Positions 4,212 to 24,533 of a DNA stretch of 53,115 nt are shown piece after piece; the stretch's first letter is position 1, and each line of letters starts with the position of its first letter. The stretch spans positions 1-53,115 of the forward strand of contig JAPEUI010000107.1 in NCBI GenBank assembly GCA_026025075.1, read 5' to 3'. The notes below the pieces were generated by a model, which saw nothing but the letters and a program-made list of their open reading frames with translations, had not been told where the DNA came from and searched no databases. The position numbers were made by a program, and so were the translations under genes. This stretch comes from Vezdaea acicularis (taxonomy: Eukaryota).

Positions 4212-6525
4212 CTACAACCCAATCATATTCTTCGGCAAGAACGCCCATGCTGTTCCGATAGAACCCAGTATTGCGCCAGAAACAATCAAACTCCAACACA
4301 AGACACGCTCCTTCAGAGGTATCTCTTTTCCATATATCTTTAGAAAGAAAGAACAAGGGAGTATGATCGAAACTGTAAAGCAGAAGAAGGAGCCCATCAG
4401 GGCCATGATCCTGTCAAATGAGGGAAAAATTATTGCGACGACCACAAAGACTATCGTGACGCCAATGCGTATAGTACATTTTAAGATTCCTCGAGTCAGC
4501 GCAGACATTCCAACCATATTTTCAGAGTCAGAGACAGCGCGAACATCAAGACCTGATAGGATTTCGAAAGTGGATATAATCGGCCGTGCATTGAGGGGAA
4601 TCTTCGTGATGGCTGGGAAGGCAAAGGTCAATATGTCTTCCAATTCTTTCTTGGGGAAAAGTAAAACTCACGTATTACAGAGATGAAGACTGCCATAAGG
4701 ATAGAGAGGGATTGGGGATACCCTTTCGTTAGAAAGATATTGGAAGTAATCTCATCACGGACTGCTTCGCCAAACATAAGCAGACCAATGACGGCCATGC
4801 TGACGTCGAGAAGGTACTGTCATCAGTTAGCTGTTGCACCATATAGCTGTTTTGCTGTGATTTTTGCTAGTGAACTTACCGTGGACACGTAGGTAATGGT
4901 GACAGCTTTGCCATATTTATGCGGATGTCTCATATCTCTGTATATCTGCTAAAGCATCAGAGAACGAGTATCGATTTCCTATGGTGCAGACGACTTACGT
5001 TACCCATGACGCTATGGCCTCCATATGGCGCTTTCATATGTCAGTGAAGTAGGTCTCAAGATGAAGGAAAGACTCACACATCAGCAAGCCAAAGCTTAGT
5101 GGTAATGCCCACCAATTATCTGGCAACAAATAAGTGGTAGCTGGGTGACGCAACGAGCCAGGCTGCGTATCCTTAAGAAAGCCATCGACGAAAATAATAG
5201 CAATTACTGTTCAGATTTAGCGGACAAGCAAACATTCATAGGGAATAACTTACTTCCAAAGCAGCAAAAAACTCCAAGGATGCTCGTGAAACTAAGAACT
5301 CTCAAAGGGACAAAGCTTAGTGGAACGAGAAATAGCCCGCATATGACCTTCCACTCAACAACACCCCACATCGGAACCAGATCGTTAAGACTGTCTGCAA
5401 ACAATACCACTAACGCAACACAAGCAGCTAGAAGTTCGAGGCTGAAGAGTATGCTAATCCATATCCTTGCTTGAGGACCGAAGGCAACATATGCAATATC
5501 TCCGAAGGTTATCATCGCACCATCAACGTCTAGGCACTTGGCGAGGATTCTAGCTGTATATGCAGTGACGCCTGCGGCAAATAGCGAGAATATCATTCCG
5601 ACAAGCCAACCTGCATACTTCATACCGAGTGGCAGACTAAGTAGCCCAATTCCAACTAAGAGGTTGATGCTATTGAACACGGTCTGGGGCATTGTCGATT
5701 GACCAACCACTACATTAACAATTTTTCCATCTTCTCTTTCAACTCGCCTTACCAGCAGGGGTGTTCGCTCCTTGTCTGGTTGCTGAACCCCAGCGGCTTG
5801 TTGCTCCTGCCAGAGCTGGTTCGCATGGCGCATCGAAGCCTCATTCACTCTGCCCGAAAGAGCTCCATAACTGGTGCCGTACATTGCACTATTAGGAGAC
5901 CCTAACAGAGGAGAAGTAGCGAAGATGTCTTCTCCGTGATCTTGACTACCTTTCGGCAATTTAGCAACAGCATCCAGCGCCTCGATGCTAGGGCTTTGCT
6001 CTACTAAGTCATCCGATGTTGCCTTACCATGGGAAAGGCTTTCTTCCCGAGTCAATTGCTGCCTTAGTAGAGACGTCCGCTCTTGGTGCGCTTGTCCTGC
6101 TGGTATCCTGAGGTAATTATGACCTTCATCATCTCCATCGTCTCCAAATACCATGGATGGTCTGTGGGGAGCAACTTCGACGAAACCAGCGGCACGTTGC
6201 CATGATCTTGCGAAATTCTCAATGCTGTTGACGCCACCAGCATGCCGTATAGAGTCGATGCGCATGGAAAGAGAAGACCTATACGTTAAATAGCATTAGC
6301 AGGCTTATAATGTATCACATGCTTGATAACGAACCTCCGCCTCCGCAACTCGTTTTGATGCTCCGCACTGCTCTCTATCCCTCGTCCACTATCTCTTGGT
6401 GAGACTGCTAGCGAGCTGGGCTCGAAATGTACCCGACTTGATACATTCGACCCCGTCCTCGACAGTGGGTTACGATCTCCATATTGATAATCGTCCCAGT
6501 TGGACGGAGCTCCCCCAGTAGCCAT
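4212..6525 (-). CDS. AVT1: Vacuolar amino acid transporter (Aa_trans/AAAP family, Avt1-like), multi-exon
   Basis: GGVNSIENFARSWQRAAGF N-terminal motif, QSTMPQTVFNSINLLVGIGLLSLP, many TM segments, TKIPLNARPI. Confidence 0.88.
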
Positions 6526-7264
6526 TGCCTAGTCCCCCACAACTTAGCCTGGACGTCGATATCTTGGCATCGATCCGAAAAGTTATGCAGAGAATTCTTT
6601 CTTGGTCAATGGAAATACATCATCTGGGGTGAGATTTGGGAGAGATCTTCACAGGGCGGGGAGGCAGTGGGGCAGGAGAACATCCGACTGGGCTTATCGT
6701 GTGACTCTTGGAGCTATGCAGGGGTGTTGCTCTTGGCGCTGATCTTAGGCAGGGGCCCAGCTTCACGTGCAATGCCCTGTTCAGTTATGCCAATCGTGTT
6801 GGATATGATTCTAGCTCCCCAGACATCACGTTTTGATCGATAGCTAAGATCCTAAGTTCGGATGTGACATCAACATCAACGGGCGTACGAGACTGGCAGA
6901 AAATGTGAGGGTTGTGGAAGACAAGCGAGTACATCTTATTCGCAGACTGGCTCAACGCCCTGTTATCTGCCGAGGCCAGCGTTATTACACGTTCCCAATC
7001 CGATAGGTTTGTATGAGTGCATTCTTGAGCTAAGATATTTACATTATTGTATTATGGTAATTATTCATTAAAATTGTATCGTACACTGGCTATGCCCTAA
7101 GGTGCATAGCTGCTGTGGACACTGCGCAGATGACGATAGGGGTTTCCCATTCACGCTATCCCAATGCCACGACCAACGCCTCGCTGAAATCTTCCAGCTG
7201 TATAGACAAGCTCTCTATGATCATATATACGTTACCCCACGCATCCTCTGCCTCTGCTCGTTGT

Positions 7265-8387
7265 CTATACTTCACGCCGATCTAGAAGCTCGTAGCTGTT
7301 CTTTTGAAGTGGCCATCGCCAGAAGCGCAGCGATGATGGCACCTTCCTCCACCGCGGCTGTCCTCGTCGCATGCTGAACGTGATGAACCGTGCGTATACC
7401 CACCAGGAGCAGATGCCAATGCAGCCCGCCGCAAAGAAGCCAAGCCCTGTTAGGAAGAGCCAATGTTGGCCCATCTGAAGGCAAATCATTAGCCTCACTA
7501 CTTCATCGGGTCTGAATGATGATTTAAAGCTTACCCAGAAGATAGTCTTGGCGTCACTCCCGTGCCAGCTGCTCCCTTTGTAAGATGCGAAAAAGCTCCA
7601 CTTCTCCTGGTTGTACGAGTTAGGAAGCAATATCCTAACTCTTGCTTCCGGCGGCACGTTTCCCCACCTAATATACTCCTTCCAGATGACACTCAAGAAA
7701 AGGGGACCAGTTGAATACATCACGGTGACATAAGGGAGCTGCCAATCGTGGTTGTAGGCCTGGAGGTTGTCGATTACCCTGAGAAAGAAAGGATGCTTGG
7801 GAATAGAGCCCATTACGTCGTTGGATATGCCGGTGGGCACCGTGCTCCGTACCCACGCAGGGTATGCGAGAAGAGGATCCAGGCGGCGGTTGCAACCCTA
7901 GGTGGGGCTACGTTAGAGCTTCCTAGAAGTGTGCAGACTGCGGAGAACTCACCTGGTCAAGGTCTATATACACGCCGCCGAAGTGAACGAGTACAAAGTA
8001 CCTTATGACATCGGCTCTTTGAATGGGTTGGGTATAGCCATCGAAGACTTCGAGGAACCAAGGGTACTCCGTCGCAATGAACTCCCTTGCTAGTGCATCT
8101 GTCCATAACTTATATTCGTAATCTTTATGCAGCTCTATGCAGTTTTTCTGCGCCTGCTTCCAAACATCCGGTATCGACTCATTGATATAAGTCTGGTGTA
8201 TTATTTTTGGGATTAATTGCGGTCGAGGATCTATTGCTTCAGACCCTAGCGATGGTATCTCAGCCTTATGAACTGCGTCGGCCTGAGCATCTTCGAACAG
8301 CAGTGTTATGAGGGTAAAGACGCTCTTAACGAGGAATGCGATGACCAGCAGGTTGATTACAAGGAAGACGACGAGACCCCTACGCAT
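7265..8387 (-). CDS. SUR1: Mannosyl phosphorylinositol ceramide synthase (GT32, Sur1/Csh1), multi-exon
   Basis: N-terminal anchor, IPKIIHQT, IQRADVIRYFVL, GGVYIDLD (DxD), PTGISND, YSTGPLFLS, GSSWH. Confidence 0.92.
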
Positions 8388-9368: not shown

Positions 9369-9905
9369 ATGGTCTGGGCAAGCCTAGTATTCCTTAAACC
9401 CTGCGCCTCTGTCTTGGTCTCGTTTGTCCTCGCGATCACATTTCTCAATTCCCCGTGCGATGCCACGTTGGGTCTCATCGAAGGAGTGCAAAGCCTCCGA
9501 TGTAGCGGCCCTCTCCCGGATGGGCTATACGGTGCACATAGTGCAGGGCCCAGATTTGCAAGTCTCGCCGGCACCAACTTTAGGTCGCTGGAACATCTCT
9601 GCAAATACAAATTTGACGGCTTTTCCATTTCCGATATAGGCTTCTATTGCATTAAATCTGGGAAGACCCTGTCTGTCATCTTTGATCCCACTCGCGGGGC
9701 CTACTTCAAGGATCACGTCAAGCAACATTGTTTCGATCATTGTCGATGTATTCAGCGAACCCGCAGGAAATTATTGGAGGAGCCTAATGTTCACCCGTCA
9801 CGGAATGAGGAGGCTTTGGCTCTGGAATCCGGACCATTGCGCCAGCAGAGACTGCCTCTTCCAACTCCGTCACGAACTTTGTATACACGGAGTGGAGGAT
9901 TATAG
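9369..9905 (+). CDS. Putative secreted Cys-domain protein, paralogue A (C-terminus possibly truncated or decaying)
   Basis: ATG at 9369, hydrophobic signal-like N-terminus (VLVSFVLAITFL), six-Cys pattern shared with the gene at 11108-12982. Confidence 0.65.
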   Translation: MVWASLVFLKPCASVLVSFVLAITFLNSPCDATLGLIEGVQSLRCSGPLPDGLYGAHSAGPRFASLAGTNFRSLEHLCKYKFDGFSISDIGFYCIKSGKTLSVIFDPTRGAYFKDHVKQHCFDHCRCIQRTRRKLLEEPNVHPSRNEEALALESGPLRQQRLPLPTPSRTLYTRSGGL

Positions 9906-10801
9906 ATCGTCTAAAAAAGGCCGTCGCAAACTAAAGAGAGTGGGAGTAAATGTACGGCCCATGATGAATGGTATATTTCAAGTATTGCTTCCGTCTGCTC
10001 TTGGGCTACCGATGAAATTCAAATCGCGGCGAGCCAACTTCTGACTGCAGTCCAGGATGATGACAAAAGGAGGTTTAAGCCGATCGGCTAGCCTGACCGT
10101 CGTATAATGTACTAGTGTCCTCGTGTTCCTTAGTTTTGGGGAGGGTGATAGCGCGTCACGACCCGAAAGTTCCAGTACACACTCGAAGCTCATACAGTTT
10201 CAGGTTTCTCGACCAGGGGAATGAGCTGTCAAGTAATCGGTCCCGTCCCTTCAGTTGCCCAAGTTTCCAAAGTCCCTTCGAGTGCATCTATGCTTCAGAA
10301 CGTCACAAGACTAGCCTAGAACGTCTCCAGGGAGGTTACAGTTGGGCTTACGGGTCCTAACCAATAGTGTATAGAGGTTACGCCGCAATCCTGGCCGACT
10401 CAGGCCCAAAATGAGCCTGGGCAAAGCTTGTTCGGGGGCTTACCTTCAAGTCCTAGGCCAAAGTTGAGGTGTTCAACACTGGATCCTACCTTAGGGTAAG
10501 AACCATACGTACTGTTCACGAATGTTCATGAGCATATAGGTAGCCATTTATTCTATAGATGAAATCTCTCTATAACAAAAATTCTCATTATATGAAAAAT
10601 TCTTCGTTATATAAGCCCCTGTCCGCTATCACGAGCACTCTCTCGGTATTACTTCACTGAAAAGACACCAGTTCATGGAGATCGCAAAAGTCCACAGTCC
10701 ACATGCGAAGAGTCGTAGGATATGGCTGTAGAGTCAGGCTGAGCTTGATCTTTCCAATATATTAGACTTCCTCATAGCCTGGGTACAATTCTACGACAGT
10801 C

Positions 10802-11034
10802 CACGGGGTATAGCCTACGTCTGTTCCGCTAAGACGTGGCGTCCGATTTTTGCGATACTTCAGCACCACGACCACAGATGCGAACGAAATTTAAAAACCT
10901 ATTGAGGTATCTCACGATAGAATAGGATGTCCTCTGCCATTAATAAAATTGTTTGACGTGGAAGGGTGGACGGTGGAAAATCGGGAAAATCGGACGCCAC
11001 TTCTTGGCAGAACAGACATAGGCTATACCCCGTG
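10802..11034. mobile_element. Non-autonomous DNA transposon (MITE), 233 bp, 49-bp TIRs, probable 2-bp TSD (TC)
   Basis: 10802-10850 CACGGGGTATAGCCTACGTCTGTTCCGCTAAGACGTGGCGTCCGATTTT matches the reverse complement of 10986-11034 at 45/49; TC flanks both ends; no ORF inside. Confidence 0.85.
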
Positions 11035-11107
11035 TCCTAAAGCTTAGGTCTAGCTCAAGTGACGCCCATGGTTCGGCCCGGCATAAACAGACTATTCTTA
11101 TTGGGCT

Positions 11108-12982
11108 TTATTCATCATCGGGCCAATCTCGCAATTGCTGTGAAAGAGCTTGGCTAAGTGACCCACTCGACCTTCTTGCGCCTCGACGGCCACGGCCACG
11201 GCCACTTCCTCTTCCTCTTACAGGGCCATAGTTTATGTTAACCCCAAGCTCTGGTGCACGTTGATTCGAGCCTCGCGGTCTGCCTGGTCGTCTACCACGT
11301 GGCCTACCGGGTTTCTTTGCGAGGCTCGCTCTAGTTGGAGCAACTATCCTTGGCGGGAGCCTGGGTCCTCTGCATCCTCTAGCGGCCCGACTCGTTCTTC
11401 TTCCCCTTCCTATTACAGGTGCTCTCACCCCACACTCTTGATGTGATTTGGCTTCTTGCTCCGCTTGGACAGCTTCTGCTGAGGCTGCAGGCATTTCTGC
11501 CGCCGCATTAACGGAGAGAGTCTCGAGCGCATTCATGATTTCGCGCATCATTTGTCCTTGCACTGATAGGTTGGTTCCGTCACTATTCCCTATTTGAACA
11601 AGCTGTCGGACTAGATCATGCGCAATCTGAGCCTGAGCAAGGAGAGCTGAGGATGATGCACCCATCGTATCAGCCAAATGGCTCAGTGCATCTTCCAACA
11701 TTCTACACGCTGTAAGCAATGCCTGGAAACGAGAAGCAGATAGCGGACGGTTGTCATTTAGCCAAATCGAAAGGTGCAAGGCAACCTGGTGCAGTGTCCG
11801 AAGACTCTCAGCAAGCGGCAAGCCTGGACCCATAATAGCCTGCAGTCCATCGAGAATCCTTTGATTAGTATAAGCCGGATTATACAAGGCCATATCATCC
11901 GCTTGACCTCTATGGACTTGTGCGTCGAGTTGTTGAGTAAGTTGGTTTGCAGCATCAGCTAGCGTTTCAAGAGCACTTGAAGACTCGGGTTGGCCCTGGA
12001 TGGCAGATGTGAGCTGATCTAAAATGAAATGAGCGCCCTGAGCCTCTTCAACAATTCCTTGCTCAGGATCTTCATTTGCTGTAGCAAGGGCACCAGCGAG
12101 TGCTTGCGAGCTACCAGCCGCCACTGCTAGCGCTTCTTGTGGCGGAAGGTTGGGATAATCCATTGAAAGCCAGTCTGCTAGGGTTTGTAATGCCGCAGCG
12201 TGTGACGTGGAAGTCAACGGGTTGAGATCAATTACTGGCTGAGCTGCTGGTGCAGCGGCTTCACTGCTGCAGCTATCAACGTTGTCAAGGCTAGTGCCAA
12301 TGCCTGGTACAGAGTGCGCAGCAGCGTTACAAATAGCTGGAACTTCCTGATTCGCGCCATCTTGAGAGGCGATTTCGCCATAAGCGGCCTCTTCTTCACC
12401 TTGCTCGTTGTGGACCCCTGTATTCCCCCATGCTATAGTTAATTCTTGGATTTGCTGGTTTGAATCGACACATTGGCACTTGTCATTGCAATAGCCTCTA
12501 AACGCTAGCTGGAGCTCAAACGTTACGGCTGAACTTGGGGCTTCTACTATCCTTTTCGCCCCGGGTGGCTGATACATTCCCTCTTCATGGATCCTGTTCT
12601 TCCATCCTTCTTGTACACAATAGAAACCGACACTTGGACTCCACGTACGCCCATGTCCAGGACGGAGGAGATCATCAACGGGTGATGTGTCATAAGGGTT
12701 GAGTTCTCGGTCAATACCACAAAGATCAGCCAAATTAAGGAACTGTGCTGGGCTCCACCATTGCCTCTTTCGGCAGTTTAGATTGATGCCCAGCACATCC
12801 GTTTGGCACACAGGCCATGGTGAGTTGTAGTCCGTACGTTCTGGAAAGTCGCCGTTGCATTCAAGTACCTGTTGAAGCGATAAGCCTAAGTGTGAAATCA
12901 AGAGCTAGTTCTAGCGTACATAAATGCCCCTTGTTACGGCGGCAAGGAGAACTAATGGGAAGAAGTCTATAACAAACCCCAT
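11108..12982 (-). CDS. Putative secreted protein, paralogue B: six-Cys domain, helical Ala/Gln-rich region, Arg/Gly-rich basic tail
   Basis: Exon 1 12920-12982 encodes signal-like MGFVIDFFPLVLLAAVTRGIY; a 51-nt GT-AG intron 12869-12919 joins it in frame to the long ORF ending at 11108. Confidence 0.8.
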
Positions 12983-13244: not shown

Positions 13245-14199
13245 TGATCTCAGTCTGATTGACACCAAGCCAGGAGAATTTGCGTTCAAAAATGCGTTGA
13301 GGAGAGAGGCTTCGATGCGGAACTTCTCTGTTAAGATAAACTCAAACAAGCACATGCCAGCATATTGTTGTGCGAGGCGTGAGACATGGCCATAAGAAAG
13401 ATGATTCTGTAGAGATGAGATAGAGAAAGAAAGCGCGCAACTTAAAAAACAGAGAGGAGACGCTGCTACCAGCGCAATCCTTGTCGCCAGCAAGAAATGT
13501 CACAATGCCACTTCATGAGGCAATTCGTGACTAGAACTATGATTCGCAGTCACCATCAATGCATGACAAACAAGACAACGAGGTGACCGTCTCAAGACAT
13601 TACCATAACTTCGTGGGAGGATTTTGACCGTGAGATGTGTCCTTGGCAAAGTCGCAGACAGCCGATGCTTGACTTTCTTTGGCCAAGTGGTCTCTATTGT
13701 CGATACAGAAGTCGGCCTTTCCACACCCCCGGGCTTAATTTAGCACCCCCAAACAAAGTCATGCTTTGTAAGATCCCTCTGTTTTGCTGACCACAGACAT
13801 CTACAATCCCATGTCATAAGTCTTCATCCGATTTCAACCGACTTTTTATTGACAACAATTCGCACCACATCTATTACCACAGCGCAAATATCGAAAATCA
13901 AAATTTACAAAGCTAAAGACCTTTGGTTTAGATTAATTTTGACATCTGAATTATACATTTTGGGCCAGATTTGGTGCTGATATGAGGTGTTTATCTAGGC
14001 AAGTATTTTGATGTGGTGCTGCGTCGCTAAAATCGGACTAAGACTTGTAACACAGCACTTAATATCACGAATGTGGGCTTGAAAGGTGATTGGTCCTAGT
14101 TCGGAAAGTTCCGTAAGGGTCATCGGAAAAGTCTCCTCCTGCTCCAAGAGCTTCATATCAGCATCATGAAATCGACTTTCTCTCAGGAACCGTGAGCTC

Positions 14200-17100
14200 A
14201 TGTTCTCTCATGCATTCGGCGCATTACGTAGGCCTTGTCCTGGGTATGTTTGTTTAAATTGTCTCCTAAAAGATACCGTGAACTCCCCTCCGAAACGAAG
14301 ACGGCGCAACTACAGCATACAGAACGCAGCACTGCAGGATTGTCCAAACGGGAAGTCTGCTCTTTCCACAAGGGGATCGTCTTTGGACCCAATCCATCTC
14401 TCTGTTGAATCAAAGGATCAGGTCAGTACAGAGCAAAGAGACTACTTTCTGCATCGGAGCTAACCCATATTTATCAGCTAGTAAAGCACCTGGAGCCACT
14501 GGACACGCTACAACTCAATCAAGCTACAAGGAGCTCTCCCAATGACCCGGAGTCACGCGCAAATATTATAGAAACCCAGCAGGCATCAAATATCTCCTTG
14601 TCGACTCCTAGAGACAATAGGCAGAACGCCAATAATCATCGCCATGGCCCTCTCAAGGAAAACAATTCGCCGGAAGTGGCTCACTCTATGGGCGAGGGGA
14701 AGAACACAAATATCAATCGAGGCTCTTCACGCTCAAAAGTGAATACCAAGCTGATGGAAGACAAAAGAAACGCTGCTCAGACTTCAAAGGACTCGCTTAA
14801 TGCTCACAAGAACGTTTCTAAGACAGACCCACGAGCGAAGAAATCTTCTCCGTTGCGACAGTCAATTGGAAGCATCAAATCCGCTATGTATGCTAGGGAA
14901 GAAGCGTCAGATAGCAAGCCTTCGCTATTGATCAAAGTCCTCAGCAAGAAGAAACGAGAGCCGTCTAGCATAGAATCAGAAATGGTGAAGAAAAAAAAGG
15001 CAAAAGGGCTGCAGAAAGGTAGGAGTCTAGCTCAGGGAAGATCTTCTAAACGGAAGCAAAAGGCTCCTGGCAAAGATAAGATGGGTTCCGCCTCAGTCAC
15101 TGGCGCTCCAGGGAAGCTGTCCATATCTAAAGCTTTATCAATTCTTTCCTCCACGAAGAAGCTTTCTTCTGGAAGGGGAAGTGGCGGATTGTCCAAAATT
15201 TTGGCTACCAAACTGCCAAGGCCTTCCTCAAAGAAGTCTTCTAAACGAGAAAACTCGTCACTCAATATCAATTCGCCTATAGTAGGAGGCAAAGCTTTCA
15301 GGCCCGGAACGGTAGGAGGACACTTGTCCCTAGAAGCGTCATTAGGGAAGGACTCATCGTTCTCCTTGACCAATAAACTTGAAGTCCATAGTATCGAAGC
15401 ATCGAACTTAGAAATCGAACGTTAGTCCTAACCAAACCCACTCCCAGTGCAAGAGCTAACCTAGCTTTAGCAATCTTTACGGAAGAGGGCCCAGTTGTAC
15501 CTGGCCTGGCATATGGTCTTGATAGAGTCTTATTCAAGTAAGTCAAAGAAAGACGAAAATCTCCTCTCGGTTGTAATAACATCTATCTCCAGCCCGGGAG
15601 TGTATCAACTCCAGGACCCGCGATCGCGGGTCTATAATTTCGATCCCTACTTACAAAAAATAATGCCAGTTGCAGAATTCAATTTCAGTTCCTTGCAAAA
15701 ATATGTAACATCATCCAAGGACGTTGTCCTACAATCTGTTGCGCAAAGATATGGAAAGCGATATACAGGGTCTTCATCGAGTATGACATCGACTCTAGCT
15801 CATTTTCATTTTCTTTTGTCACAGTGGAGAAGCCCGAACTTCTCTATGCTCTCCGAAAGCTTCCCTAAAGCTTCCAAAAATTTCACCCTTTTACAAAGAG
15901 GCCCGTCAGCTGCTTTCCTCCGCTGGAATGGCAGCGGCTATGCAATTGACGCAGATAAAGAGTACGACACCCCTAACGTTTTAAGCATGCTTGGGAAATC
16001 TATGGAGAAACTATTGACCCTAGAAACGAATGACTTTGAGCGATACCGCAGGACGAACGCAACACAAATTTCCGAGGATGAGAAAAGTGCGCCAGAAGCA
16101 TTTCATTACTCATCGATGGGAGATTTCCTCATGCGGTCCCAGCTTGACGCATATGACCATAGACTGCCAGGAACTGGGATGTTTGACCTCAAGACAAGAG
16201 CTGTGGTGTCGATAAGGATGGATGTCGAGAATTTTGAAGAAGGGATGGGTTACGAAATTCGACAATTGCATGGAAACTACGAATCCTTCGAAAGGGAGTA
16301 CTACGATATGATCCGGGCCGCCTTCCTTAAGTATTCACTGCAAGTCCGAATGGGTCGTATGGACGGTATCTTCGTTGCTTATCATAACACCGAGCGGATA
16401 TTTGGGTTTCAGTATGTTAGTCTTCCGGAGATGGACCTATCATTACATGGCACTGCAGACACTTTGCTCGGTGATCAAGAATTCAAGATGAGTGTAGAGC
16501 TCCTGAACAAGGTCTTGGATCGAGTCACTGCGAAGTTTCCTCAGCAGGTATGGCGAAGAACCCTTGCGTGTTCCAAGAACTCACCGCTAATTTGCAAAGT
16601 CCGTACGGTTGCACTTCGAAACAAGAGAGACTTCAACCCCATTTATGTACATCTTTGCTGAGCCTATGTCGGAAGAAAGAATCGAAAGGATTCAAAACAG
16701 AAGCCAATTGGCGACTCAAGATTTCGAGAGAAAGCTTTTCAATTTGGATCATGAAAACAGTGAAGGACAGTCATCAGTCGAGAGCCCCGGAGAAGATGGC
16801 CTTCAAGAGAAGGGCTGGGAAACATTGCGAGCTAAAGTTGAGGAAGAAGTTGAGATGGATGGAAGGTATCCACATCGAGAGGCTGTGGAGAGCGATGACA
16901 CCGGTTTGAGACCTACAATCACTCTCGGGGGAGATTCCACTAACAGCAATCTTATAGTGGCTAGTCTTGTTGACCTTGAGGCCATGGAGAGCAACTCCTC
17001 TCCTTTGGACAATGCTAACACTACATGTTCCGAAGAGCGGGCAGACTCGGAATCCGAAGCTACAGCTGAAAAGGAGGCACCCGCAAACACAGATGTTGAT

Positions 17101-17682
17101 GGACCGATAGATAAAGAAGCGGAGGGTTCTACGCGAGATGCCGCGAACCTCAAAACGGAGAACTGGGACTTAAGAGCCTTGGAACATGATAAAGATCCAA
17201 GCATGGGTGCCCCAGAGAAGGGTTTGCAGGCTCATACTTACAGTGACAAAATCTCAGCGGACACAGTGCCAGCTGTGCAAAATAAGAAGCTGCCCCATTC
17301 AAAGGCCGAGGGAAGAGATCTAGCGAGCAACAATTCAAAGGAAAGCCTGCATCAAGGCAGCACACCTGACCTATTCGCTATGACTTTGACTGTGCGTAAC
17401 AGGGTAAATGGACGTTATGTGGATCGTCCTGTTGATCTTCGCAAAGGGGACAAGTGGGCCGCTGAATATAGTCTTGCAGAGGTACAAGGCGCAGGTAGGA
17501 GCTGGAGTCTCTACACGGCATCTAAACTCAGACGGGAAAAAGCACTTAGCTCTAACAACAAAGATGAAAAGCAGGCTGTATCCTTCTACACGGCACGTCT
17601 GAGGGAATTGGCCCAGAAGGGCAAGCAATGGCGACTAGAGCGAGATAGGATGGACGAGGATAAGAAACGTAGCATCCTATAG
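14200..17682 (+). CDS. PET127: Mitochondrial RNA-processing exonuclease Pet127, multi-exon
   Basis: Presequence-like start MFSHAFGALRR; spliced LAYGLDRVLFN-PGVYQLQDPRSRVYNFDPYL; MRSQLDAYD, FDLKTRAV, FLKYSLQVRMGRMDGIFVAYHN. Confidence 0.92.
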
Positions 17683-22799: not shown

Positions 22800-23735
22800 T
22801 CAGAGCTCTCGGCTCAAACTTCGCGACCTCCACCTCTCATCCATCTCATCATCCGAAAAGCTATACGTCGGATTCATCTCATGCCGTTGTAACACCGTTT
22901 GGGCTAGTTTAGCTAGCTCTTCGTTGCTGGGAGTTCCAGCCTCTTCATCCATATCTACATTCATTCCATCCACATATACATCCATTCCATCCCCTCCCAG
23001 GCTCCCCTTATCCTCCTCCGCCTCCTCCTCCCCATACTCACCCTCGTCCACTTCTAGCGGCCTCACGTCCCCGGGTGTAAATCCAATGACCTTGCCCTCA
23101 CTCCCTTTCCTCAAGTTTTCGTCCCCACTTGTTTCTGTATCTGCATCTTCCTCTCTCCCTTCCACATCCGTTGGCAACGGCCTCGTTATATCTGCGCCCC
23201 TCATCCGCCCCCTCCTCCCCCTTGATCTTCCTCTTCCTCGCCCTCTACCCCGGCCCCCCCCCCTACCCCTCGTTCCCACACCAGCTTTTGAGGCCGGACG
23301 TCCGCGTCCGCGCCCGCGCTTATAGTAGCTCAACTGACCTGCACTGGGTCCAGTTTTCAATTTATCAGAATCATCTCTCACGGGTTGAGATGCCCGCATG
23401 CTGCCTCTCCTTCCCCGCGCCTGGCTGCGCGGACTAAGCCTGACGCGCTGTTTCGTCCTGGCAATGTTCTCCCATCTCCCCGCCGTGAACTCTGCCCAAC
23501 AGCGCTCTCGGCCTCCATTTTGTTCTACGAAGGGAAGAATATTGCATTTGTGCAGCTGGTCGAAGGTTGAGGTGAGAAGGTGGTTGTAGCTGGTGGGGCT
23601 AAGGTGGAGGTCTTGTGACAAGGACTCGGAGCTAGGGAGGAGGCTGCTGTTGAAGTCCCGATCGTGTGAGTGAGATTTTATGAGGTGTAGAGCTGAGAGA
23701 AATGTCAATGGAGAGTCCGGCAGAGAAATGGACAT
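22800..23735 (-). CDS. Hypothetical protein with AT-hook-like/RG-repeat segment and acidic C-terminus
   Basis: 311 aa ATG-started ORF containing KRGRGRGRPASK and RGRGRGRGRSRGRRGR followed by a D/E-rich region. Confidence 0.6.
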   Translation of the reverse strand: MSISLPDSPLTFLSALHLIKSHSHDRDFNSSLLPSSESLSQDLHLSPTSYNHLLTSTFDQLHKCNILPFVEQNGGRERCWAEFTAGRWENIARTKQRVRLSPRSQARGRRGSMRASQPVRDDSDKLKTGPSAGQLSYYKRGRGRGRPASKAGVGTRGRGGGRGRGRGRGRSRGRRGRMRGADITRPLPTDVEGREEDADTETSGDENLRKGSEGKVIGFTPGDVRPLEVDEGEYGEEEAEEDKGSLGGDGMDVYVDGMNVDMDEEAGTPSNEELAKLAQTVLQRHEMNPTYSFSDDEMDERWRSRSLSREL

Positions 23736-24533
23736 GTTGCGTGGTTGTTATTCGGGCAATCATGATTTGGGGGTGGTGTTTGTGGAGGCGGGCAAGTTCG
23801 CTCTTGATTTCCTTTTGCCGAGGATGACAAAGGGAACATTTTGAGCGTGCAAGCAGCAATCATGCATCAAGTTTCACTGTTTTCATCATCTCCAGGGTCT
23901 ATAGATTTGGCCGCTTTCTAGAGCTCCCAAACTTGCATGTTGTTCCTCCCGATTGGACTCGTTCTCACCGGCTGCGCGATAGGTTCGTCTCTGGTGAGTA
24001 GCGTTGCATGGACAAGCCTTGCAGCTCTAACTTAAACCCCTTGTGTTCGGTCTGGGTGCCCGGGGGAGACCCTCCTTACAACTCATAGCTCAAGCCTCGA
24101 CTGCTGCAGCATATGCTACTTCAAGCCCAGGAGTGATAAAGCCCAGCACCCTGCGGCTGGAGCGATTCGTGTCTTGTCATTATTTTTGTGTAAGCCAATA
24201 TGGGAGGCTCTAATGGAACCTACGGAACAAATCCTTATTCCAGGGTCATTTCAACTGCAGTATTACTAGTAAGAAATACACATTGCCGTGGCGAATCTCA
24301 TTGTTAGGCTTGCCTCCAATCATGTGGGCGTGGCACTCTGTCAACTTGCGGTCACGAAACGCCACAAGTTCGAGACCACGGTCCAGATGCGGGCTCGACT
24401 ATAAGCTTTCAGTCTATCTTCTCAGCCTTGTCGGCTCGAGACTCCTTTCGAGAAATATATATAGATGCCCGACCACCTTATCTTTTCTCTACTTGTTACC
24501 CTTCAAATGACCGTGCGCGTTTAGCATAGAGCA

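Follow-up and report, generated by a model that had tools for sequence, protein, structure and literature searches.

Two convergent genes, A and B, lie side by side in a 53,115-nucleotide (nt) stretch of Vezdaea acicularis DNA (assembly GCA_026025075.1, contig JAPEUI010000107.1, positions 1 to 53,115 of the forward strand), referred to here as the window. The question raised by this locus is what the two predicted secreted proteins have in common, to which family they belong and what such a family may do. A preliminary description made from the sequence alone had read A and B as orphan genes that share an unrecognised six-cysteine domain and have swapped C-termini. The module common to A and B is real, and both proteins are, with near certainty, members of one large protein family, in which they are atypical.

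The module shared by A and B

All four pairs of short motifs on which the preliminary description had based the common domain were found at their places in A and B. The similarity of the two proteins is marginal by BLASTP, with E 0.010 for the whole proteins and 0.001 for the modules (20 identities in 85 aligned positions), and a hidden Markov model (HMM) was therefore built from 41 module copies located outside the window, with neither A nor B included. Among the 690 open reading frames (ORFs) of the window, A ranked first (E 1.9e-10, 40.2 bits) and B second (E 0.0017, 20.9 bits) against this model, and 0 of 2000 shuffles of each protein reached the real score. The pairwise relationship claimed earlier is thus above chance by HMM and marginal by BLASTP, and the same query-free profile also detects relatives in this genome and in other fungi.

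Both proteins show the cysteine (Cys) pattern C1..C2..C3..CxxxCxC together with an above-chance score against a profile that does not contain the query. The six Cys are located at positions 45, 78, 94, 121, 125 and 127 of A and at exon-2 positions 4, 50, 84, 127, 131 and 133 of B, which has its own extra Cys pair (21, 32) within the first loop. The motif GFYC is present in A and B and in only one of the 67 other module copies. AlphaFold models of both modules have the element order β-α-β-β-α-β. The A model (alignment of 41 rows; predicted local distance difference test, pLDDT, 81.5; predicted template modelling score, pTM, 0.70) contains strands at 2-6, 53-58, 61-66 and 86-90, helices at 35-39 and 76-85, and a short helix at 25-29. 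The B model (alignment of 60 rows) contains strands at 2-4, 82-87, 90-95 and 131-133 and helices at 46-50 and 113-130.

The family in the genome of Vezdaea acicularis

The genome (18.9 Mb, 315 contigs) was searched with single paralogues and then by HMM iteration on the loci found. Outside the window, 67 distinct copies of the module were identified in 59 ORFs, which is a lower bound. Two of these ORFs resemble exons of a single gene, and four further diverged genes are visible by eye; about 60 family genes is therefore also a lower bound. The expanded family of secreted Cys-rich proteins with a conserved N-terminal module that had been postulated was thereby recovered, and the term orphan does not apply to genes with about 60 paralogues.

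The module copies are 85-110 residues long and strongly diverged, with a median pairwise identity of 23% and a maximum of 44%. Six-Cys and eight-Cys types occur. Both extra Cys are present in 35 copies, neither in 33 and a single one in none (68 scored), which suggests a disulfide across the hairpin, predicted to join the Cys that lies two residues ahead of C3 to a Cys of the following strand; this all-or-none count is inflated by kinship, as the Cys types are largely clades with 4-5 changes on the tree. Only the Cys and one Pro are invariant in the 41-row alignment, and the loops show free variation. No catalytic set is thus apparent, and a non-enzymatic role in binding seems plausible. A hydrophobic N-terminus was detected in 46 of the 52 ORFs with an upstream Met by a crude hydropathy measure used without a control.

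The usual protein begins with a predicted signal peptide, which is followed by one or two modules and by a variable linker; a small Cys module then precedes a dibasic site and a C-terminal peptide. The C-terminal peptide carries four Cys in the motif CxCNx[ST]..CC..G..WE and was found, with no Pfam match, in 51 distinct ORFs. It is encoded in the same ORF in 37 of the 59 module ORFs and just downstream in 6 more, a share that is inflated because many loci were found via the peptide. Of 48 ORFs, 42 have KR or RR in the 30 residues that precede the peptide; among background windows the figure is 74 of 399. Among 149 database matches found with the module alone, 65 have the C-terminal peptide and 131 have at least two modules, counts affected by a scoring bias towards tandem forms and by many rows that appear truncated at introns. 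Variable cargo behind the module, proposed earlier as the family rule, does not agree with this conserved C-terminus.

An N-x-S/T glycosylation sequon is present in all 51 C-terminal peptides, and Pro/Ser-rich linkers occur in family members. These two features and the high copy number would also suit structural or adhesive proteins of the wall or thallus matrix, in which the glycosylated peptide cross-links and the module serves as a scaffold or glycan binder. Such a role is considered unlikely, since the 23% identity of the modules and the dibasic site (42 of 48 ORFs) fit diversifying, processed proteins better, and since A and B do not carry the C-terminal peptide.

Two further observations concern the family genes. 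The C-terminal peptide is more conserved than the N-terminal module and is possibly the active product (e.g., L055:505-1620 and L002:985-2793). Several family genes are paired within 3 kb, some of them on opposite strands like A and B (L043/L053 on contig C283, L057, L073, L036, L013).

Organization of genes A and B

The features of A, B and their surroundings are listed below.

Features of genes A and B and of the flanking DNA (coordinates of the window; aa, amino acids)
Feature	Position	Strand	Basis
Gene A coding sequence, 178 aa: predicted signal peptide, one six-Cys module, short tail	9369..9905	+	single ORF
Predicted signal peptide of gene A, about aa 1-32	9369..9464	+	best 9-residue hydropathy 3.17; cleavage site judged by eye
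Gene A six-Cys module, aa 42-130	9492..9758	+	HMM built without A, 40.2 bits; model
Gene A tail, aa 131-178; RR at aa 132-133 adjoins the module	9759..9902	+	sequence
Gene B exon 1, 21 codons, predicted signal peptide	12920..12982	-	sequence; best 9-residue hydropathy 2.73
Gene B intron, 51 nt, GT..AG, phase 0	12869..12919	-	sequence only
Gene B exon 2, 586 codons and stop	11108..12868	-	ORF
Gene B module, exon-2 aa 1-137, six shared and two extra Cys, long loops	12458..12868	-	HMM built without B, 20.9 bits
Gene B acidic disordered linker, aa 138-220	12209..12457	-	sequence, model
Gene B helical region, aa 221-469; four-helix bundle about aa 349-462	11462..12208	-	model
Gene B basic Arg/Gly-rich tail, aa 471-586	11111..11458	-	sequence
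Left flank, DXD glycosyltransferase gene (presumably SUR1-like)	7265..8387	-	PF04488, E 5.9e-20
Right flank, PET127 gene (ends approximate)	14170..17682	+	PF08634, E 5.5e-123
Miniature inverted-repeat transposable element (MITE), 233 nt, 55-nt terminal inverted repeats	10802..11034	.	arms 10802-10856 and 10980-11034

Gene A ends 51 residues past its last Cys, and the RR next to its module is a possible Kex2 site at which the protein may be processed. A variant of A with one residue changed and the same stop is present in a protein collection (record P0003), and this variant was the sole relative among the 57 candidates of a single-sequence search. A 58-codon stop-free stretch lies in the frame of gene A at 9915-10091 (+) behind two close stops, and may represent chance or an exon. 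A second exon of A in the same frame (9915-10088) was considered and not adopted, having no relative in the genome and no convincing intron.

Gene B is the most unusual member of the family seen. Neither K nor R occurs in aa 138-225, whereas the tail contains 29 K+R against 7 D+E and two PGRPRG motifs. These motifs presumably resemble AT-hooks, which have an RGRP core; no Pfam match of the tail was obtained at E up to 1. About 250 residues of B were modelled as ordered helices without an alignment. A variant of B with four residues changed and the frame open was found in the same collection (record P0155), and it was the sole relative in a single-sequence search of 8000 scored candidates, all of 322-1026 aa. 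The C-terminal 430 aa have no relatives in the genome or among these 8000 candidates. A search for RNA listed no RNA holder.

The tails of A and B are unrelated to each other and were found on no other protein, and the family rule is a conserved C-terminus, so that the description of swapped C-termini is not supported. A more general form of the same idea regards the module as an address label and the C-termini as exchangeable cargo, as in polymorphic toxins. The layout of B (module, linker, helical bundle and cationic tail) is in accord with this idea, as are 2 of the 79 relatives scanned, in which a GDSL lipase or MOSC domain follows the modules (P0092, P0018) by fusion or through merged gene models. 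However, one conserved C-terminal set is common to most members, a cargo shared by two carriers was not observed, the C-terminal 430 aa of B having no relatives, and both enzyme fusions are single records that may be merged gene models; exchangeable cargo is accordingly regarded as highly doubtful.

Relatives in other fungi

The 41-copy profile, which is derived from one genome, detected 324 cluster representatives with E of 0.001 or below in a set of 1.84 billion. Among the 150 matches listed, 20 besides the variant of A are near-identical to proteins of this genome. Of 30 clusters looked up, 17 carried an organism name, and 14 were kept after three near-identical to the genome's own proteins had been dropped. 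The named relatives (14 clusters, and 23 named rows out of 25) are all annotated as 'hypothetical protein'. They originate from Vezdaea aestivalis, Caeruleum heppii (at least 21 rows), Polycauliona sp., Calogaya cf. arnoldii, Teloschistes chrysophthalmus, T. peruensis, Physcia stellaris and Puttea exsequens.

These species fall in two groups of lichen-type ascomycetes, some being Lecanoromycetes, and the family is thus not the expansion of one lineage that had been suggested. No non-lichen fungus was found among the named matches (14 clusters, 23 rows). Apart from Vezdaea and P. stellaris, the named relatives are presumably lichen fungi as well. The lichen habit of Vezdaea is described in the available part of PMC13616976 and that of P. 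stellaris in the available part of 10.64898/2026.09.03.749242, which also names an unannotated orthogroup from 30 chlorolichens.

Comparison with known families and folds

The earlier statement that the domain belongs to no family known to its author agrees with the profile searches. In Pfam nothing above the cut-off was obtained for A or B, nothing consistent for the 41 copies and no family on the module in the 79 relatives. No profile of CFEM, hydrophobin, LysM or cerato-platanin matched A, B, the 41 copies or the 79 relatives. Pfam KP4 and Hce2 did not match this set either, a result that bears on KP4-like groups 1 and 2 only, as groups 3 and 4 are mostly without Pfam domains and so unaffected. 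NCBIfam returned 0 of 4, and the best E among PDB sequences was 0.48.

In structure comparisons, 0 of 18 Foldseek matches of the A model to PDB reached E up to 0.001, and a second look at the 18 chains gave none at Z 2. VIA-align of the A model against 48,161 chains gave as its best match one chain, Nup170 (Z 2.0, root-mean-square deviation (rmsd) 3.0, 52 aligned), and a viral library gave 0 of 213 at E up to 0.001. KP4, KP6 and FOLD structures and ferredoxin-like domains were absent from the fold matches of the A model, negatives that prove neither differing folds nor a new fold. The B model (470 aa), in which the module was barely covered, had no Foldseek match at E up to 0.001. Its VIA matches lie mostly at aa 326-465 and are generic helical bundles with Z 9-11.4, including separase (Z 11.4, rmsd 2.2, 100 aligned), vinculin tail (Z 11.3, rmsd 2.2, 108 aligned) and de novo bundles; because they are generic, no function was drawn from them. 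ESM Atlas was uninformative, with a best value of 0.79 for the A module and nothing usable for the helices of B. Modelling as proposed earlier thus gave the same element order in A and B and no fold match at E up to 0.001.

CS-alpha-beta defensins carry a CxxxC on the helix, a further Cys 9-10 residues on and a terminal CxC strand. The module resembles these peptides, CFEM proteins and hydrophobins in being disulfide-rich and, by prediction, secreted, and it has a CxxxC on a helix as CS-alpha-beta peptides do. Its Cys spacing differs from the patterns assumed for all three groups. The CxxxC and the last Cys are contiguous (CxxxCxC) in a module of 85-110 aa, which is not the CS-alpha-beta arrangement.

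The KP6 fold may be the nearest analogue of the module by layout, as judged from the models. KP6-like proteins (UmV-KP6 alpha/beta and Zt-KP6-1), as presented in the accessible text of PMC12382754, and the module are both small α/β units, secreted or predicted to be so, that combine four strands with two helices and have Cys in the first strand and in each helix. The KP6-like precursor described there contains tandem same-fold units and is cleaved, and the present family also has tandem modules and may be cleaved likewise. In KP6, two helices pack on one face of a four-stranded sheet and there are two right-handed split crossovers; the element order of the module is compatible with this fold. 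The KP6 core has four Cys and two defining disulfides, strand 1 to helix 2 and helix 1 to strand 3, whereas the module has six or eight Cys and a terminal CxxxCxC. The Cys of the module models are located in the first strand and in each of the two helices. The present family also has additional conserved C-terminal Cys modules and no sequence or profile link to KP6. KP4 proteins form an α/β sandwich that has six or seven strands and a left-handed crossover. The A and B models show four strands of at least 3 residues.

These likenesses raise the alternative that the family belongs, as a remote branch, to the KP6 (or KP4) killer-toxin-like superfamily and has an antifungal role like that of Zt-KP6-1. 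The linear order of strands and helices and the elements that carry Cys (PMC12382754, in the part available), tandem units with dibasic processing that recall the KP6 pre-protein, and the 47 KP4-like secreted proteins of Xanthoria parietina (10.1101/2024.08.16.608140, in the part available) would all accord with such a descent. The module has three or four Cys pairs ending in CxxxCxC in place of the two defining disulfides of KP6, and no PDB chain (best E 0.48) and no Pfam family was matched, which makes this descent decidedly unlikely.

FOLD/MycFOLD effectors (Avr1, Avr3 and SIX6) resemble the family in having a six-Cys N-domain followed by a second domain, and are expanded in pathogens and in a symbiotic fungus according to the accessible sections of PMC12018790. 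Their N-domain is composed of one helix and five strands and is followed by a beta-sandwich, whereas the module is composed of two helices and four strands. No beta-sandwich is present in A, which has a 48-aa tail, or in B, which has a helical C-terminus, and neither is thus placed among the FOLD proteins.

The secretome of X. parietina, in the available part of preprint 10.1101/2024.08.16.608140, includes 47 proteins of a KP4-like group and 205 secreted proteins that carry no annotation, and 55% of the transcripts upregulated in the thallus are without annotation. It is comparable to the present family in consisting of secreted effector-like proteins of a lichen fungus, and close relatives of Xanthoria (Polycauliona, Calogaya and Teloschistes) have the module. 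This family may be among the 205 unannotated proteins; the part of the preprint available gives neither a Cys motif nor an architecture for comparison. The literature search, which had subscription journals and bioRxiv supplements outside its scope, found no description of the module or of the architecture. The family is undescribed and of a kind already known, that of expanded Cys-rich effector-like families.

Proposed function of the family

Family, size, Cys pattern, architecture and dibasic enrichment were established directly. In other fungi, expanded families of secreted Cys-rich proteins with diverse sequences have effector or antifungal functions (PMC12382754 and PMC12018790, both in the parts available). 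A and B are atypical representatives of the present family, which is large and strongly diverged and would consist of secreted pre-pro-proteins in lichen-type ascomycetes. The module would be locked by three or four disulfide bonds, and Kex2-type cleavage would free the C-terminal peptide and, in A, the lone module at RR 132-133. Outside the cell the module could act as a stable non-enzymatic binder, the variable loops of which would recognise the photobiont or competing microbes in the role of effector or antagonist. In B the module may have been kept joined to a newly acquired helical bundle and cationic tail. A function of the family in inter-organism interaction is modestly favoured.

Several points weigh against this interpretation. 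A and B are without both conserved C-terminal modules (the motif is absent in six frames over the whole window), and the processing logic of the family therefore need not apply to them. The match of B to the profile is weak (E 2.3e-06 with a larger HMM), and the loops of its module were modelled at low confidence. Signal peptides are predicted, from hydropathy. The known range rests on 14 named clusters out of 30 and 23 named rows out of 25, with 150 of the 324 matches listed, and non-lichen members may exist. Activity, target and localisation are, for every member, inferred.

A much bolder version, which is rather improbable as a whole, would regard the module as an undescribed disulfide fold that two classes of lichen-forming fungi have expanded into a symbiosis effector platform. 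The module would dock on algal or microbial surfaces, Kex2 would free the conserved peptide, and rare members such as B would use it to bring a new payload into partner cells, namely the helical bundle together with the cationic tail that resembles AT-hooks.

The family bears on the means by which lichen fungi recognise their photobionts and microbiota and keep them under control. With about 60 genes in an 18.9-Mb genome, at least 21 in Caeruleum heppii and members in Lecanoromycetes, it offers a profile, a foldable unit of 90 residues and a predicted cleavage product. All three can be placed on lichen transcriptomes that already exist, and they are open to direct tests. The A/B pair matters mainly as the entry point to the family.

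Flanking genes, MITE and origin of the pair

The flanking genes and the MITE reported earlier were all identified at the locus (PF04488 and Pet127, PF08634; 55-nt inverted arms). A SUR1-like gene was found near PET127, within the stretch fetched, in 5 of 80 metagenome loci, and the module in none of the 80 (14,525 ORFs, best E 0.19). The same divergent order of SUR1 and PET127 was present in 1 of the 35 loci with at least 7.1 kb upstream (L107). In L107, from another fungus, an alkaline phosphatase gene fills the SUR1-PET127 interval (5926-7554), and the interval thus takes variable content.

The MITE is flanked by TC/TC (10800-11036), whereas TA/TA was seen in four of five other copies read. 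Near-full-length copies occupy 12 places in the genome, the window copy included. The MITE was considered as a gene carrier and rejected, as a by-eye comparison showed no family match within 10 kb of any of 17 other MITE places; the window copy is probably a bystander.

A and B are sisters in a quick tree (66 rows and 118 columns, without the 3 of 67 copies that have fewer than 5 Cys; the careful search was unfinished), with a Shimodaira-Hasegawa-like approximate likelihood ratio test (SH-aLRT) value of 90, not starred, and long branches of 1.34 and 2.1. By identity, neither is among the five nearest copies of the other. An origin of the pair by an old inverted duplication is possible from these comparisons. 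The long branches, the loss of the C-terminal modules, the MITE between the genes and the absence of the module at 80 other PET127 loci would also suit truncated, drifting copies with little or no function. Both genes, however, keep a predicted signal peptide and all six Cys, their frames are open in the variant records, and B has 586 open codons with about 250 residues modelled as ordered helices, so that decay is very improbable. Elsewhere in the window, a 315-codon ORF at 22800-23747 (-) encodes a GR-repeat stretch and an acidic tail.

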